Of a stretch of 34,933 nt of DNA, positions 1,764 to 31,187 are shown piece after piece; within the stretch, counting starts at the first letter, position 1, and the number at the start of each line of letters is the position of its first letter. The translations under genes and the position numbers were made by a program. A model generated the notes under the pieces. That model worked only from the letters and a program-made list of their open reading frames with translations, had not been told where the DNA came from and did no database searches. Source of the DNA: a virus (taxonomy: Duplodnaviria; Heunggongvirae; Uroviricota; Caudoviricetes); the IMG/VR virus record IMGVR_UViG_2778261229_000002, positions 1 to 34,933 of that record. The stretch is one strand, 5' to 3'.

Positions 1764-2268
1764 CGTCGTAGAGCTCCTGAGCCATGTCTTCAGCAGTGCG
1801 TGCAAACATCCTTCGAGAAATTGCATGCGATTTTTCAACAGACATCTTTGGTACTTCTCGCATTACAACCTCATGTGACGCTGTAGGCTTAAAAGATGAC
1901 TTATAATACCGCTTTATCATCTCAACTAATTGCTGCTTATCCTTGGAGCGTCCAGTTTCGATTAGCCTTGACTCGTAAGGTCGCATTATATTCGTTTGAC
2001 ATGAGGCACGATGAAGCTTATCTGCCAAGATTCCTTCAAAAGATGTGCCCCGGATTTTTAACAATGCCTCATGCTGGTCGTATTCAGTGATGAACATAAC
2101 CGGGTATTTTTGCTCAACTTCTTCATCATGAATCCTGATGGCATTGGCAGTTGCTATGGCAGCAGCATAAGCGGCTGCTTCAATCACCATCTTTTTCTCT
2201 TTTTCTTTTTCAGACTTTTTCAAGGTCAAGCGTCTATGCCTCATCGCTGCAACTCTCTTCGTGTTCAT
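1753..2268 (-). CDS. Hypothetical protein, 171 aa (cargo cassette 1, proximal gene)
   Basis: ORF-track frame 1753..2280 begins with TTG; I prefer the ATG at 2268 (MNTKRVAAMRHRR...) preceded by GGGGGTG. Basic/acidic low-complexity N-terminus (KKSEKEKEKK). No recognisable family. Confidence 0.5.
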   Translation of the reverse strand: MNTKRVAAMRHRRLTLKKSEKEKEKKMVIEAAAYAAAIATANAIRIHDEEVEQKYPVMFITEYDQHEALLKIRGTSFEGILADKLHRASCQTNIMRPYESRLIETGRSKDKQQLVEMIKRYYKSSFKPTASHEVVMREVPKMSVEKSHAISRRMFARTAEDMAQELYDDAE

Positions 2269-2279
2269 GGGCACCCCCA

Positions 2280-2327
2280 ACTACCTCTAGGGTAAACATT
2301 CTATCGAAAGTATACGCATACTGGCAA
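2280..2327 (-). promoter_or_regulatory. Promoter for cassette 1 (TTGCCA-18 bp-TAGAAT on the minus strand) with degenerate operator ACTACCTCTAGGGTAAA
   Basis: Reverse complement of 2298-2327 gives -35 TTGCCA and -10 TAGAAT with an 18-bp spacer. The operator-like palindrome at 2280-2296 sits over the predicted start site. Confidence 0.45.
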
Positions 2328-2376
2328 AAAAATAGGCAGGCATTTTCTGAAATGGGATCAATCAAACCACATAGGG

Positions 2377-2421
2377 TTGAAATAACGTGAGCTATGCATT
2401 TATTATTACCTTTACGGTAAA
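2377..2421 (+). promoter_or_regulatory. Rightward promoter (TTGAAA-18 bp-TATTAT) overlapped by operator ATTACCTTTACGGTAAA
   Basis: Hexamers at 2377-2382 and 2401-2406; operator at 2405-2421. Reads toward the structured leader and ant. Confidence 0.45.
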
Positions 2422-2511
2422 TTTACATCGCACTCCTCTTGTGCCATAGTAATCGGGCACTGGCAAAATCCAGTGCCGGGATTGGTCTCCCGGATTACTA
2501 AGTGGCGCATA

Positions 2512-2533
2512 CCACGCCAGACGTGGTTTTTTT
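2512..2533 (+). terminator. Intrinsic terminator CCACG-ccaga-CGTGG followed by TTTTTTT
   Basis: Hairpin at 2512-2526 plus a 7-T run, between the operator-controlled promoter and the ant start codon. Confidence 0.55.
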
Positions 2534-2691
2534 ATGCGTATAGCACAGTCATGCCAGAATTATGGTGGGCTGAATGGGGGTCCGAAAGGACGCCGGTACC
2601 ACTTAGGCCGGTAAGACCAACTCCGTTCAGTTCACCACCATCTGATTGGTCTCAGCGGTGGTGATGTAATTCGCTAAGTGGAGACGCCATC

Positions 2692-3348
2692 ATGAACGCT
2701 CAACTCATCCCCGTATTCAACGGCACTATATCTAACGAAACAGCCCTACTTTGTAATGCCCGCGATCTGCACGCTTTTTTAGGTGTTAAAAAGGTGTTTG
2801 CAGCATGGATTACAAATCGCATTTCAGAATACGAATTCATTGAAAATCAAGACTATATTTTGCTTTCCAATTTGGGAAAGCAAACATCTGGTAGAGGCGG
2901 CCACAACCGCAAAGAGTACCACCTCACCCTTGATACAGCCAAAGAGCTGGCGATGGTCGAGCGTAACGAAAAAGGTCGCCAGGTACGACGCTACTTCATT
3001 GAATGCGAGAAACGTTTAAGACAACAAGAAACAAAAGTGGAGAAGGTCTTGTCAGGCTTCATGCCAGCCATTATGGAGGCGATCAAGCTGGAAGACAAAA
3101 AAGAATACAGTGCCCCACTGAAGCCTGGCTACCGCAGTCTGATTCATTCTCCGTCTGGTGTTCTCGGCCTGACGGAGAACTCACTGCTGATGAATCTGCT
3201 GAACCAGTTACAGGAAGACGGGCACGACGTATCGGGCGCGGCGGCGGAGTTGACCACCATGTTCTGCTACATCGTCGGTGTGAGCAAATGCCTGCGTGAT
3301 ATCCAGACGCACGCGGAGTACATCAACGACAAAGCAGGGTTCTTCTGA
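2692..3348 (+). CDS. ant: Phage antirepressor (AntA/AntB-type N-terminal domain plus C-terminal domain)
   Basis: N-terminal block LIPVFNG...[35 protein letters not shown]...[33 protein letters not shown] matches the AntA/AntB antirepressor family as I remember it. GGAG lies 8 nt upstream of the ATG. Confidence 0.7.
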
Positions 3349-3414: not shown

Positions 3415-3431
3415 ATTACCTTAAAGGTAAA
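3415..3431. promoter_or_regulatory. Operator-like palindrome ATTACCTTAAAGGTAAA
   Basis: Same motif family; lies 26 bp upstream of the ATG at 3457. Confidence 0.5.
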
Positions 3432-21356: not shown

Positions 21357-21394
21357 TTGACATTTAACGCGTGAATTATTACCTTTCAGGTAAC
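21357..21394 (+). promoter_or_regulatory. TTGACA box plus operator ATTACCTTTCAGGTAAC upstream of the tRNA insert
   Basis: TTGACA at 21357-21362; operator palindrome at 21378-21394. I could not find a convincing -10 hexamer at correct spacing. Confidence 0.35.
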
Positions 21395-21715: not shown

Positions 21716-21792
21716 GTGGCATTAGCTCAGTTAGACAGAGCAACCGCCTTCTAAGCGGTTGGTCGCAGGTTCGAATCCTGCATGCCACGCCA
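21716..21792 (+). tRNA. tRNA-Arg (anticodon UCU), 77 nt, argU-like
   Basis: Cloverleaf folded by hand: acceptor GTGGCAT/ATGCCAC, D-stem GCTC/GAGC, anticodon stem ACCGC/GCGGT with loop CTTCTAA, T-arm GCAGG-TTCGAAT-CCTGC, discriminator G and encoded CCA. Anticodon loop and T-arm are identical to E. coli argU as I recall it. Confidence 0.85.
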
Positions 21793-23584: not shown

Positions 23585-24213
23585 TGATTGCCATCCTGAC
23601 GTTCTTTGAGTCGCTTCCTGGCTGCTGCTATGCGATCAGCAATTGTCACATTCACATTAACATCCAGACGTTCTTTGAACGCGTTAACGTCGACGTGCTT
23701 ACCGATGAGCTCGAGGTTTTTCACCTTGTCGGGCCATTTCACCTTCTTCAGGATATGCTCGACATCCTCAACAGAGAAATCCGCCTCGCCATTCTCTTTT
23801 TGCAGGGAAGCCTGGGTTGTCTTGATGGTAGCGATATCCATAGCACTGAGAGAGGTACGCCAGACCTTCGGCCATTCAGCGATCGGCTTCATCCCGCCGT
23901 CATCGTTCAGTATATCCAGCACGTCCATCTGGTCGATCTCCACCAGGCGCATGAGAACGTAATCAGCACTGACGCGCATTCGTTTGTTGCGCTCCTCCAT
24001 CAACTCGGCAATCCGTTTTTGAATGCGTTCATCGCGCATCATGACACTGGCTTTAACTGCCGCTGTATTTGGGGAGAATCCTGCGTTAATCGCTGCCTGA
24101 GTCTGGTTTTCAGGCGTTTTGATGTATGACTGGCAATAAGCCTCCTGCATTGCTGTTAGTGGCTTAAATTGCGTTGATTTGCGTTTATAGGTTTTAGGTT
24201 CAGCAGGCATCAT
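23581..24213 (-). CDS. terS: Terminase small subunit, about 210 aa
   Basis: ORF-track frame 23581..24291; I prefer the start at the MM pair (24208-24213), because the upstream 26 codons run through a tandem DNA repeat. HTH-like block QEAYCQSYIKTPENQTQAAINAGFSPNTAAVKASVMM is typical of P27-type small terminases. Stop overlaps the terL start. Confidence 0.65.
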   Translation of the reverse strand: MMPAEPKTYKRKSTQFKPLTAMQEAYCQSYIKTPENQTQAAINAGFSPNTAAVKASVMMRDERIQKRIAELMEERNKRMRVSADYVLMRLVEIDQMDVLDILNDDGGMKPIAEWPKVWRTSLSAMDIATIKTTQASLQKENGEADFSVEDVEHILKKVKWPDKVKNLELIGKHVDVNAFKERLDVNVNVTIADRIAAARKRLKERQDGNQ

Positions 24214-24220
24214 AACCACC

Positions 24221-24252
24221 GTGGTAATAGTTACCGTTGTGGTAATAGTACC
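24221..24252. repeat. Tandem 15-bp direct repeat GTGGTAATAGTTACC / GTGGTAATAGTACC, each an internal palindrome
   Basis: Two adjacent copies separated by GTT, immediately upstream of the terS start. The half-sites GGTAA/TTACC are the operator half-sites in inverted arrangement. Confidence 0.5.
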
Positions 24253-28001: not shown

Positions 28002-28065
28002 GATTTACCCCTGAGGTAATTAAAAACCACATAAGACACGAAATCAATAGATCTTAGAACATTTT

Positions 28066-28082
28066 ATTACCTAGCAGGTAAT
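28066..28082. promoter_or_regulatory. Operator-like palindrome ATTACCTAGCAGGTAAT
   Basis: Perfect half-sites; located between the P-like gene and the downstream nin-region genes. Confidence 0.5.
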
Positions 28083-30011: not shown

Positions 30012-30028
30012 ATTACCTTTGAGGTACG
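30012..30028. promoter_or_regulatory. Operator-like site ATTACCTTTGAGGTACG (degenerate right half)
   Basis: Motif family member located between the Cro-like gene terminator and the downstream gene. Confidence 0.35.
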
Positions 30029-30032
30029 AATA

Positions 30033-30060
30033 GATATGAAAAGACCGCCGGATGGCGGTC
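30033..30060 (-). terminator. Intrinsic terminator after the Cro/CII-like gene (GACCGCC-atcc-GGCGGTC followed by TTTTCATATCT on the minus strand)
   Basis: Perfect 7-bp GC-rich stem at 30043-30060 with a T-tract on the minus strand. Positional analogue of lambda tR1. Confidence 0.5.
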
Positions 30061-30082
30061 TACAGAGGGTTGTGGCTGGATA

Positions 30083-30313
30083 TCATGAGTAGAAGAAGTA
30101 TGCCAGTTCTGCTTTTGAGCGCAGCCATTGTCTTGATTTACAGGCTTTAAAAAGCCCATCCATCAATACCTTACCTGGCATTTTGCGCTTACCTGTTAAG
30201 TGAGTCTGGATATAGTGACTCGTCGTTCCGGCTTCCTGTGCGAAGGCTTCACGCTCATCCGGAGTAAGTGCAAGCCAGTGCTTTTTGAAATCGAAATGTC
30301 CGTTATCGCTCAT
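30083..30313 (-). CDS. Small Cro/CII-like HTH regulator, 76 aa
   Basis: Divergent from the repressor gene across an operator-bearing intergenic region; short basic protein with HTH-like segment (AFAQEAGTTSHYIQTHLTGKRK). Confidence 0.5.
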   Translation of the reverse strand: MSDNGHFDFKKHWLALTPDEREAFAQEAGTTSHYIQTHLTGKRKMPGKVLMDGLFKACKSRQWLRSKAELAYFFYS

Positions 30314-30345
30314 AGCTATTGCCTGATATTTATTTCAGATAATAA

Positions 30346-30413
30346 ATATTCACCTATAAGGTAACAAAAATCAAGGATAGTTACCCATGAGGTGCATTTA
30401 CCTGTTGGGTAAT
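30346..30413. promoter_or_regulatory. OR-like divergent control region: three operator sites and a minus-strand promoter TTGATT-17 bp-GAATAT
   Basis: Operators TTCACCTATAAGGTAAC (30349-30365), AGTTACCCATGAGGTGC (30380-30396, degenerate) and TTTACCTGTTGGGTAAT (30397-30413). Promoter read on the minus strand from plus coordinates 30346-30374, with an operator in the spacer. Confidence 0.5.
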
Positions 30414-31108: not shown

Positions 31109-31187
31109 ATTACCTAACGGGTAATTTTTTTAACTCATATCTATTGACATCAAACCAGATACGCATAATTATTACCTCAACGGTAAC
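31109..31187 (+). promoter_or_regulatory. OL/PL-like region: operators ATTACCTAACGGGTAAT and ATTACCTCAACGGTAAC flanking a TTGACA box
   Basis: Operators at 31109-31125 and 31171-31187; TTGACA at 31144-31149 with an A/T-rich -10 candidate (CATAAT at 31164-31169). Reads into the exo/recT operon. Confidence 0.5.

Follow-up and report, generated by a model that had tools for sequence, protein, structure and literature searches.

The window analysed here comprises 34,933 nt of a caudovirus genome (IMG/VR record IMGVR_UViG_2778261229_000002). The nearest relative of the host prophage is Escherichia phage phiv142-3 (genus Uetakevirus). We examined the region 5' of ant, a gene whose product carries an AntA/AntB N-terminal domain and is named 'phage antirepressor Ant' in RefSeq. 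Two promoter-like sites, an operator-like palindrome and two RNAs of known families precede ant, together with two copies each of two short boxes (Table 1). Two minus-strand ORFs farther upstream bear the label 'YafO family toxin' in the RefSeq annotation of a near-identical prophage; searches of both against Pfam and NCBIfam returned no match.

Table 1. Features of the ant leader region; positions refer to the window.
Feature	Position	Strand	Basis or property
Upstream promoter-like site	2377-2406	+	TTGAAA 2377-2382, 18 nt, TATTAT 2401-2406; 10/12 consensus matches
Operator-like palindrome TTACC-N5-GGTAA	2406-2420	.	Over-represented in window, arms conserved
Predicted proximal promoter of IsrK-like RNA	2422-2450	+	-35 TTTACA 2422-2427, 17 nt, extended -10
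IsrK-family small RNA	2457-2533	+	RF01394, 67.7 bits, cutoff 50, E 1.3e-12
Box a1 TTGGTCT, IsrK hairpin-2 loop	2482-2488	+	Complementary to a' of C4
Box b1 CTAAGTGG, IsrK linker just 5' of terminator	2498-2505	+	Complementary to b'
Terminator-clamping helix GCGCAT 2504-2509 / ATGCGT 2534-2539	2504-2539	+	Covarying types
C4-family antisense RNA	2558-2642	+	RF01695, 61.2 bits, cutoff 45, E 1.1e-9
b' CCACTTAG, loop of second C4 hairpin	2599-2606	+	Unpaired probability 0.85
a' AGACCAA, single-stranded C4 bulge	2614-2620	+	Unpaired probability 1.00
a2-presenting hairpin TCACCACC 2632-2639 / GGTGGTGA 2657-2664	2632-2664	+	Predicted fold
Box a2 TTGGTCT, second copy of a1, 5 nt past C4	2646-2652	+	
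Box b2 CTAAGTGG 2674-2681, with ant Shine-Dalgarno to 2683	2674-2683	+	
ant, antirepressor, 218 aa, AntA/AntB N-terminal domain	2692-3348	+	PF08346, E 4.2e-26

Transcription from the upstream promoter-like site would start near position 2413 and would add a 5' extension of 44 nt to the IsrK-family RNA. A comparable -35/-10 pair was read by eye at this position in related loci with the same operator. The -10 region of the proximal promoter (TG at 2442-2443, one nucleotide, CATAGT at 2445-2450; 9/12 matches plus the TG) ends 6 nt before G2457, the start predicted at the level of sequence. Judged by eye, 91 of 92 distinct related upstream sequences contain a -35/-10 pair ending 6-7 nt before hairpin 1 of the RNA, and the Gifsy-1 promoter is placed relative to hairpin 1 as the proximal promoter is here. 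The transcription start of Gifsy-1 IsrK, recovered from the published mutant numbering, corresponds to position 1 of the Rfam isrK model. The original prediction had assumed a promoter at 2377-2406 and a terminated transcript of about 120 nt. A promoter-like site is indeed present there and a discrete terminated small RNA is expected, but the promoter conserved in relatives is the one at 2422-2450. Consequently, the small RNA should measure 77 nt from G2457, as judged by homology, rather than about 120 nt.

The palindrome between the two promoters abuts the proximal -35 element and extends over the start site predicted for the upstream promoter. Its consensus occurs 15 times in the window (10 exact matches), compared with 0.52 expected from shuffled sequences. 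The exact copies are dispersed through the window, the one at 2406-2420 being one of ten. In related loci the arms are conserved and the centre is variable.

The isrK and C4 matches both score above their curated Rfam gathering cutoffs. The isrK match spans the full model (positions 1-77 of 77) and comprises hairpin 1 (2457-2476) with its CAAAAU loop, hairpin 2 (2477-2492) with a target box in its loop, a linker and a Rho-independent terminator. As perfect repeats, hairpin 1 consists of GGCACTGG (2456-2463), the loop CAAAAT (2464-2469) and CCAGTGCC (2470-2477), and hairpin 2 of CCGGGA (2476-2481), the loop TTGGTC (2482-2487) and TCCCGG (2488-2493). Since these two perfect stems have CC at 2476-2477 in common, the stems in the Rfam model are 7 bp (2457-2463/2470-2476) and 5 bp (2477-2481/2488-2492) long. 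Four of the seven positions of hairpin 1 show three to six pair types among 81 loci, i.e. the stem covaries. The terminator stem (ACCACG 2511-2516/CGTGGT 2522-2527) is followed by a T7 run (2527-2533) that begins at the final stem base. With 6 bp, about -8 kcal/mol and the U7 run its strength is only moderate, and therefore partial read-through is plausible. Two hairpins and a terminator at 2512-2533 had been noticed before; they were recovered with a shift of 1 nt for hairpin 2 and with a terminator stem from 2511 to 2527. Folding z-scores were -2.9 for 2457-2533, -4.4 for 2413-2540 and -4.4 for 2457-2710. These values, together with the E-value of the isrK match, place the predicted folding of the leader beyond chance.

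Additional helices may form around the terminator. The terminator-clamping helix is possible solely in read-through RNA. In 81% of loci its length is 5 bp or more, compared with 38% of cross-locus pairings, and several of its types co-vary. A competing helix beside b1 gives a nascent minimum free energy of -5.45 kcal/mol versus -2.68 kcal/mol in shuffles, and in 93% of loci it is more stable than in the locus's own shuffles. One could speculate that the 3' end of b1 pairs with the 5' strand of the terminator as an anti-terminator and so links termination to C4. Only 1-3 nt of b1 are shared with this proposed helix. The linker forms direct pairs with the terminator 5' strand no more often than in shuffles (2.05 vs 1.80).

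The original prediction treated the roughly 160 bp before ant as a plain gap. Within the 158 nt from the T-run to the ant ATG, however, lies a complete C4-family RNA (positions 1-87 of 87 of the model), the proposed actual effector. Its canonical fold has a predicted energy of -40.7 kcal/mol and a tRNA-like closing stem. RNAs of the C4 type are antisense RNAs matured from a read-through transcript, with RNase P acting at the 5' end. Judged from homology to the annotated ends of P1 c4, the mature form is predicted to extend from about 2564 to 2639. No promoter-like site was found between terminator and C4 (2534-2563); hence, C4 synthesis should depend on read-through. The loss of STnc1160 reported for a PisrK deletion in Gifsy-1 agrees with this dependence.

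Target boxes are present on both sides of C4 and on the same strand, with a1 and b1 upstream and a2 and b2 downstream. The b' loop is exactly complementary to b1 and b2, and the a' bulge to a1 and a2. Predicted duplex energies are -12.6 kcal/mol for b'/b1, -12.4 kcal/mol for b'/b2 and -9.2 kcal/mol for both a'/a1 and a'/a2, and a1 itself is unpaired with a probability of 0.87. These complementarities, which tie the parts of the leader together, had been overlooked. Box a1 is homologous to the segment containing G28 and G31 of Gifsy-1 IsrK. The pairs G28-C162 and G31-C159, demonstrated there by compensatory mutations (PMC4825925), map exactly onto a1/a'.

Covariation was assessed in 81 distinct related loci from IMG/VR. 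The boxes a1, a' and a2 co-vary exactly in 79 of them, with 13 sequence types, and exact a-box matches occur in only 0.16% of cross-locus pairings. The b boxes co-vary across 48 different b' loops: pairing of at least 7 bp is found for b'/b1 in 92% of loci (5% cross-locus) and for b'/b2 in 96% (11% cross-locus). Sequence differences among the loci maintain pairing within and between the RNAs but do not preserve a reading frame. Membership in the two RNA families, complementarity of the boxes, their geometry and their covariation are direct results of the present analysis. The conserved core is IsrK (a1 b1), terminator, C4 (b' a'), a2 and b2/RBS; orf45 of Gifsy-1 lies outside this core.

The Shine-Dalgarno sequence of ant (GGAG, 2680-2683) is located 8 nt before the ATG. 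Box b2 overlaps it by just 2 nt (GG) and ends 11 nt before the ATG at 2692. In nearly all loci b2 is found at or just 5' of the RBS of the first gene, 10-14 nt before the start codon. An inverted repeat before the ant RBS, previously placed at about 2629-2661, was found no more than 3 nt away. Its role, which had gone unseen, is presumably that of a hairpin presenting a2 and borrowing a strand from C4. Six or more base pairs form in 95% of loci; covariation in the hairpin is limited. The hairpin excludes a folded C4, because the strand that forms its 5' arm also provides the 3' side of the C4 closing stem. When the free ant leader is folded in silico, a2, b2 and the Shine-Dalgarno sequence are already largely paired (unpaired probabilities 0.22-0.31); this and the short overlap of b2 with the Shine-Dalgarno sequence count against the mechanism proposed below. 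The predicted folds also contained a pairing between GUCUC in a2 and GAGAC at the ant Shine-Dalgarno sequence. By eye this pairing is not conserved in Gifsy-1 or L053 and is therefore treated as chance.

From these elements a mechanism can be proposed, for which transcript ends, processing and the direction of regulation are borrowed from the homologues. Transcription would begin at the operator-flanked promoter near G2457. A fraction of the transcripts would stop at the intrinsic terminator (2511-2533) and yield a 77-nt IsrK-type small RNA carrying a1 and b1. The rest would read through into the tRNA-like C4-type RNA and then into a2, b2 and ant. The general logic of the original prediction, i.e. 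read-through into ant under RNA-level control downstream of an operator-bearing promoter region, is right by homology. After its release by processing, C4 would pair through the exposed b' loop and the a' bulge with b2 and a2 on the ant leader. Since b2 overlaps the ant Shine-Dalgarno sequence, Ant would remain untranslated, and we propose that the prophage repressor consequently stays active. The b' and a' sequences also fit a1 and b1, and pairing with the nascent leader may increase termination before C4 and ant. Such autoregulation has reportedly been observed at t1 of P4 and Ta of N15. Finally, free short IsrK may compete for C4 and switch ant on, as shown for Gifsy-1 IsrK. Homology is thus the basis for C4 processing, RBS occlusion, termination control and decoy action of IsrK in this model.

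The IsrK-family RNA and the ant leader have their a and b boxes in common. On this basis the short IsrK might, tentatively and with considerable doubt, be regarded as a dedicated C4 decoy, which would give a circuit of three RNAs (decoy, repressor and target) with a combinatorial two-box code. If this were true, the at least 13 a-types and 48 b' loops (79 loci) would set the immunity specificity between co-resident phages. The Gifsy-1 scheme, in which IsrK activates its own mRNA through orf45, would then be a special case of C4 titration, because orf45 is absent here and b2 overlaps ant's own Shine-Dalgarno sequence. In such a circuit the choice of isoform may depend on which of three alternative partners pairs with the GGCGCAU hub: the terminator loop, the stretch directly past the U-run, or the 5' extension that transcription from the upstream promoter would provide.

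The leader could also act as a simple attenuator in cis, in which a transcript of about 120 nt from 2377-2406 ends at 2533, no trans-acting RNA is involved and the hairpins merely set the level of read-through into ant. The 10/12 score of the upstream promoter-like site, the similar site in relatives and the moderate terminator with its plausible read-through are in line with this. We nevertheless regard it as improbable, since both the C4 RNA and the duplicated boxes that co-vary with its loop and bulge in 79/81 loci are left unexplained. Furthermore, the promoter conserved in every lineage is the proximal one with +1 at hairpin 1, and the Gifsy-1 homologue acts in trans. Quite improbable is also a pure control of termination of the P4/N15 type, where the sole effect of C4 would be stronger termination at 2533, possibly also at Rho sites farther downstream, and its pairing with a2/b2 would serve termination or polarity, not ribosome blocking. 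P4 and N15 do have the identical order of isrK, terminator and C4, and the conserved helix competing with the terminator next to b1 is suggestive. In addition, Briani et al. 2000 reportedly found that CI RNA enhances t1 termination in P4, and CA RNA is said by Ravin et al. 1999 to cause premature termination in N15. The position of b2 in almost every locus, at or just 5' of the RBS and 10-14 nt from the start codon, argues against this reading, because it is the hallmark of the translational block in P1 and would be unneeded for termination alone.

A strict Gifsy-1 mechanism, in which short IsrK opens the RBS of orf45 and Ant is made only by translational coupling, appears very improbable for this phage. 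The locus is homologous to isrK-orf45-anrP of Gifsy-1, and folding of the whole read-through leader in silico yields the published 'structure A', with a1/b1 of IsrK paired in cis to the interior of C4 (PMC4825925). In the Gifsy-1 model, orf45 overlaps the C4 region, its start is the conserved AUGG in the 5' stem of C4, and its stop overlaps the start of the antirepressor gene. However, no orf45-type upstream ORF is present in the leader: the AUG at 2562, homologous to the orf45 start, opens only three codons (ATG GTG GGC TGA). The ORF from this conserved AUG varies from 3 to more than 110 codons across 79 loci and is thus not conserved. The only longer frame in the leader (ATG 2551 to TGA 2664, 37 aa) lacks a Shine-Dalgarno sequence and ends 27 nt ahead of the ant ATG, whereas ant has its own GGAG. 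That the region encodes small proteins instead of RNAs is hardly credible. ORFs of 63 aa (2473-2664, plus strand) and 32 aa (2412-2510, minus strand) do exist, and CDSs are annotated over the homologous region in the GenBank records of Tyrion, ZX5, yong2 and TL-2011b. Neither ORF, however, has a match in Pfam or NCBIfam, even at E 1-10; moreover, variation preserves pairing and not frame, and both Rfam models are matched over their full length.

In the preferred reading, this E. coli prophage very probably carries a P1-like 'immI' immunity module, and the leader represents its RNA half. The likeness to immI of P1 and P7, as opposed to that of P22, includes the order of the parts and nearly equal spacings: 28 nt from a2 to b2 (29 nt in P1), 11 nt from b2 to the start codon in both, and 5 nt from C4 to a2 (4 nt in P1), based on the P1 annotation NC_005856. 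In P1/P7 this order is Oc4, P2c4/P1c4, a1 b1, c4, a2 b2, icd and ant (Citron & Schuster 1990, as summarised in PMC7313666). Also shared are a C4-family RNA whose loop contains b' and whose bulge contains a', a boxes of 7 nt and b boxes of 8 nt, an antirepressor as output, and a repressor operator with two promoter-like sites upstream. In P1, however, the upstream element scores as Rfam family c4-a1b1 (RF03163) instead of isrK, and only a weak hairpin with a T-run precedes c4, whereas in the window a strong IsrK-type small RNA with a U7 terminator is found. P1 furthermore has icd between b2 and ant. Here no ORF intervenes, ant starts 11 nt past b2 and b2 overlaps its Shine-Dalgarno sequence; the coupling of icd to ant is a feature of P1/P7, not of the RNA family.

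Gifsy-1 (isrK-orf45(STnc1160)-anrP-isrJ) likewise has an Rfam isrK followed by C4 and an antirepressor gene, an identical a2-presenting hairpin (TCACCACC/GGTGGTGA) and an a1/a' pairing that was verified experimentally. It differs by orf45 and isrJ, instead of three codons and no isrJ after ant, and by its boxes (a = TTGGCGT and b = TCACCG, here a = TTGGTCT and b = CTAAGTGG). Gifsy-1 is lambdoid, whereas the phage studied here is a podovirus of the genus Uetakevirus. In Gifsy-1, as proposed here, a single promoter gives rise to both a short terminated form and a read-through form (Hershko-Shalev et al. 2016, PMC4825925). Binding of Hfq by IsrK and activation of antirepressor translation in trans are known only from Salmonella experiments, and C4 pairing at a2/b2 is not invoked in the published Gifsy-1 model (PMC4825925).

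The P4 immunity region (PLE, seqA, t1, CI RNA, seqC) resembles the window in its isrK-family leader with an intrinsic terminator, the following C4-family RNA and the target boxes flanking the antisense RNA on both sides. In P4 a longer spacer of about 108 nt separates the terminator from C4, and the output is the P4 replication operon rather than an antirepressor. In P4 the RNA reportedly acts by premature termination (Sabbattini 1995, Briani 2000). N15 immA also shares isrK with a terminator, then C4 and an antirepressor operon; two small genes precede ant there and the box sequences are different. According to Ravin et al. 1999, this anti-immunity locus is said to consist of Pa, CA RNA, an icd-like gene and the ant operon. 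Its promoter is said to be under the control of the prophage repressor, which parallels the operator-like sequence at 2406-2420, and the reported mechanism is RNA-induced termination. The intrinsic terminator of the leader is located between b1 and C4, the order also found in P4 and N15. The emphasis differs between the known systems: translational block and polarity in P1, premature termination in P4 and N15, and activation by short IsrK via an upstream ORF in Gifsy-1. Barquist et al. 2013 (PMC3632133) named the P4 system the 'IsrK-C4 immunity system'.

APSE phages of Hamiltonella contain isrK and C4 in tandem with putative a' and b' upstream of a BRO/antirepressor-like gene (PMC7313666), and their DNA is about 72% identical to the RNA region of the window. 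The APSE description is annotation only; the partners assigned there to a' and b' were the region preceding the BRO gene and a distant polymerase gene, not IsrK RNA (Rouil et al. 2020, PMC7313666). The original prediction had compared the locus with immI of P22 (Pant, arc, mnt, sar RNA), in which an operator-controlled promoter and a small RNA at the ant RBS likewise silence an antirepressor. The sar RNA, however, is a cis-antisense RNA that is read from the other strand and spans the ant start, whereas the regulator proposed here lies upstream on the same strand and uses two short boxes. At the Rfam gathering threshold sar was detected on neither strand, and neither a minus-strand promoter nor a terminator was found at 2650-2750 around the ant start. 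With arc and mnt also missing, we rejected the P22 analogy in favour of P1/P7 immI, P4, N15 and Gifsy-1 IsrK.

The type of IsrK/C4 module is already known and the locus contains no new principle; the leader is probably a real but ordinary, unannotated copy of it. In Uetakevirus-type prophages the dispersed repressor-like palindrome is thereby combined with a proposed P1-like RNA lock on the antirepressor, a combination relevant to spontaneous induction and to the cross-talk of prophages residing in one host. The finding also corrects existing records, since the region 5' of ant is an RNA module over which some phage records carry spurious 'hypothetical' or 'Ash family' CDSs, and RNA annotation is missing in the inspected E. 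coli and phiv142-3 records. A megablast-level match to this region is present in 467 of 5,426 complete E. coli genomes.

An Rfam scan of the entire window at curated thresholds yielded three matches in all, among them a tRNA gene (21716-21789, plus strand, 71.1 bits) with the anticodon-loop sequence CUUCUAA. The two others, isrK and C4 antisense RNA, are located on the same strand as the antirepressor gene ant and span the full model length each. Consequently, the structured leader upstream of ant makes up one half, IsrK, of a module of two RNAs. The original prediction had found a real feature in the right place and its overall logic was partly right, but the family to which the feature belongs, IsrK/seqA plus C4/CI controlling an antirepressor, has been described before, and this member of it lacked annotation. 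The roughly 160 bp preceding ant, which had been read as a spacer, contain the second RNA, C4. A small-protein reading of the region found no support in Pfam and NCBIfam searches. The system was named the IsrK-C4 immunity system by Barquist et al., with seqA and CI RNA as the P4 equivalents (PMC3632133), and both RNAs were annotated in all APSE phages by Rouil et al. (PMC7313666).

Positions of the two RNAs, their pairing boxes and neighboring elements in the window
Feature	Position	Sequence or description
Promoter-like site, upstream	2377-2406	
Palindrome copies	885-899, 2281-2295, 2406-2420, 3416-3430, 21379-21393, 24213-24245, 28005-28081, 30013-30412, 31110-31186	TTACC-N5-GGTAA
Proximal promoter, predicted	2422-2427; 2442-2450	-35 TTTACA; TG-n-CATAGT
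isrK (RF01394)	2457-2533	67.7 bits (cutoff 50), E 1.3e-12
Hairpin 1	2456-2463/2470-2477	GGCACTGG/CCAGTGCC, loop CAAAAT; read from sequence
Hairpin 2	2476-2481/2488-2493	CCGGGA/TCCCGG, loop TTGGTC; read from sequence
a1	2482-2488	TTGGTCT, loop of hairpin 2
b1	2498-2505	CTAAGTGG, IsrK linker
Terminator-flanking helix	2504-2509/2534-2539	GCGCAT/ATGCGT
Terminator	2511-2516/2522-2527; 2527-2533	stem; T7 run, first T being the last stem base
C4 (RF01695)	2558-2642	61.2 bits (cutoff 45), E 1.1e-9
b'	2599-2606	CCACTTAG, loop of second C4 hairpin
a'	2614-2620	AGACCAA, C4 bulge
Second inverted repeat	2632-2639/2657-2664	TCACCACC/GGTGGTGA
a2	2646-2652	TTGGTCT
b2	2674-2681	CTAAGTGG
ant Shine-Dalgarno	2680-2683	GGAG
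ant	2692-3348	AntA/AntB antirepressor domain; ATG at 2692

Two boxes of C4 each have an exact complement that occurs twice: b' matches b1 within IsrK and b2 after C4, and a' matches a1 and a2 in the same arrangement. In the window ant has its own Shine-Dalgarno sequence, which b2 overlaps by 2 nt. Predicted unpaired probabilities (b' 0.85, a' 1.00, a1 0.87) indicate accessible boxes, and the predicted duplex energies are about -12.5 kcal/mol for b and -9.2 kcal/mol for a. Family membership and pairing scheme are demonstrated at the sequence level.

A single scan of IMG/VR, with a pattern in which the loop of hairpin 1 and the 5' arm of hairpin 2 were the sole fixed parts, gave 120 loci, of which the 81 distinct ones with hairpin 1 and a T-run were used for covariation. 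The 7-nt hairpin-2 loop has an exact reverse complement in the downstream C4-like RNA in 79 of these 81, and the same 79 carry an exact second copy of it after that RNA (13 different a sequences, cross-locus rate 0.16%). Pairing of 7 bp or more is possible between the C4 loop and the b1 of its own locus in 92% of loci, and with the b2 of its own locus in 96%, compared with 5% and 11% for cross-locus combinations. The loop has 48 different sequences, which occur in mixed combinations with the 13 a boxes among the 79 loci. In almost every locus, b2 lies at the first gene's ribosome-binding site or immediately 5' of it. A subclass of the IMG/VR loci has a longer spacer, with a' about 40 nt further downstream, and shares with P4 a TATAAT-like element between terminator and C4. 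One viral contig (L047) contains two IsrK-type elements (2427 and 3570, about 1.1 kb apart) with unlike a boxes, TTAGCCT and TTGGAAC.

Both hairpins, the terminator and the second inverted repeat of the original prediction are present in the sequence. Since the hairpins have two bases in common, they are realised with stems of 7 and 5 bp. Folding of the leader is predicted to be more stable than that of shuffled sequences (z = -4.4 for 2413-2540, -2.9 for 2457-2533 and -4.4 for 2457-2710). Hairpin 1 shows three to six pair types at four of seven positions in the 81 loci; in the inverted repeat, 95% of loci retain at least 6 bp, and some of the changes are compensatory. Its loop displays a2, and the 3' strand of the stem that closes C4 serves as one of its arms. 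In the predicted whole-leader fold, the counterpart of 'structure A' published for Gifsy-1, the repeat forms when a1/b1 are paired in cis with the interior of C4. A helix adjoining b1 and competing with the terminator is conserved among related loci. The terminator-flanking helix clamps the IsrK terminator and is possible in read-through RNA only. It co-varies (5 bp or more in 81% of related loci versus 38% of cross-locus pairings) and may be a processing site.

A transcript of about 120 nt had been proposed. The upstream site is indeed promoter-like and has a counterpart in relatives, but in very different lineages hairpin 1 is preceded, at a distance of 6-7 nt, by a -35/-10 pair, and from this proximal promoter the predicted sRNA has 77 nt. 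In a transcript starting near 2413, UGUGCCAUAGUAAUC would pair with GAUUACU..GUGGCGCA and bury b1 (predicted fold; pairing within 2440-2510); hence, the two promoters could yield IsrK forms differing in activity. Between both sites lies a palindrome with 15 occurrences in the window (10 exact; 0.52 expected), one of them directly after ant and another where the minus-strand ORF 1753-2280 starts. Its arms are kept in relatives while the centre varies. With this overrepresentation and conservation, 'operator-controlled' is a reasonable label for the promoter. The copies look like a dispersed set of putative operators for one repressor, resembling that of P1.

From the studied homologues we infer a mechanism in which read-through of the IsrK terminator would supply C4. 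Pairing of C4 with a2/b2 would block ant translation as in P1, and its pairing with a1/b1 while the leader is still being transcribed would increase termination. P4 t1 and N15 Ta are precedents for termination raised by antisense pairing on a nascent leader. Free IsrK would titrate C4 and switch ant on; in Gifsy-1, IsrK supplied in trans raised an anrP translational fusion 139-fold (PMC4825925), a precedent for this step.

The annotated P1 record has the order C1 operator Oc4, tandem promoters, a1, b1, c4, a2, b2, icd, ant. Spacings are nearly identical (P1 versus the window: a2 to b2, 29 and 28 nt; b2 to start codon, 11 nt in both; c4 to a2, 4 and 5 nt). However, the upstream element of P1 is c4-a1b1 (RF03163) by Rfam instead of isrK, and icd is missing in the window. 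P4 has isrK followed by C4 (Rfam), and in N15 the same tandem precedes the antirepressor operon. The N15 CDS 'gene 32, transcriptional repressor' (2083-2373, minus strand) overlaps the Rfam C4 at 2302-2389. Several further phage records have 'hypothetical' or 'Ash family protein' CDSs beneath stretches matching the query 2280-2720 of the window. Such CDSs are probably RNA genes that were annotated as if they encoded proteins.

In Gifsy-1 the order is isrK, C4, anrP, isrJ. Transferring the mutant positions numbered by Hershko-Shalev et al. (PMC4825925) to its sequence places the IsrK 5' end at Rfam position 1, G28/G31 in a1 and C162/C159 in a'. Thus, the a1/a' helix has already been verified there by compensatory mutations. 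The upstream ORF of this locus, orf45, has its first AUG in the conserved AUGG that forms the 5' end of the stem closing C4. Orf45 has no counterpart in the window, where the homologous AUG (2562) opens only ATG GTG GGC TGA, and ORFs from the conserved AUG range from 3 to more than 110 codons in the 79 loci. This is evidence, from sequence comparison, that the conserved core does not include orf45. Its placement outside the core, the corrected anatomy and the finding of how broad the two-box specificity code is are the modest added value of the analysis.

The window is close to prophages of E. coli chromosomes, and the query region matches in 467 of 5,426 complete E. coli genomes; in the records inspected, 'phage antirepressor Ant' is the sole annotation at the locus. 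The closest phage is Escherichia phage phiv142-3 (genus Uetakevirus), with 99.1% identity from 2400 onward. Since homology starts there, it lacks a pair of minus-strand ORFs (193 and 175 aa, 1257-2280) that overlap each other and separate the tail-fibre region from the isrK promoter. Pfam and NCBIfam searches gave no match for either ORF. Their counterparts in a near-identical E. coli prophage are annotated as a 'YafO family toxin' and a hypothetical protein, and the pair looks like a toxin-antitoxin insertion.
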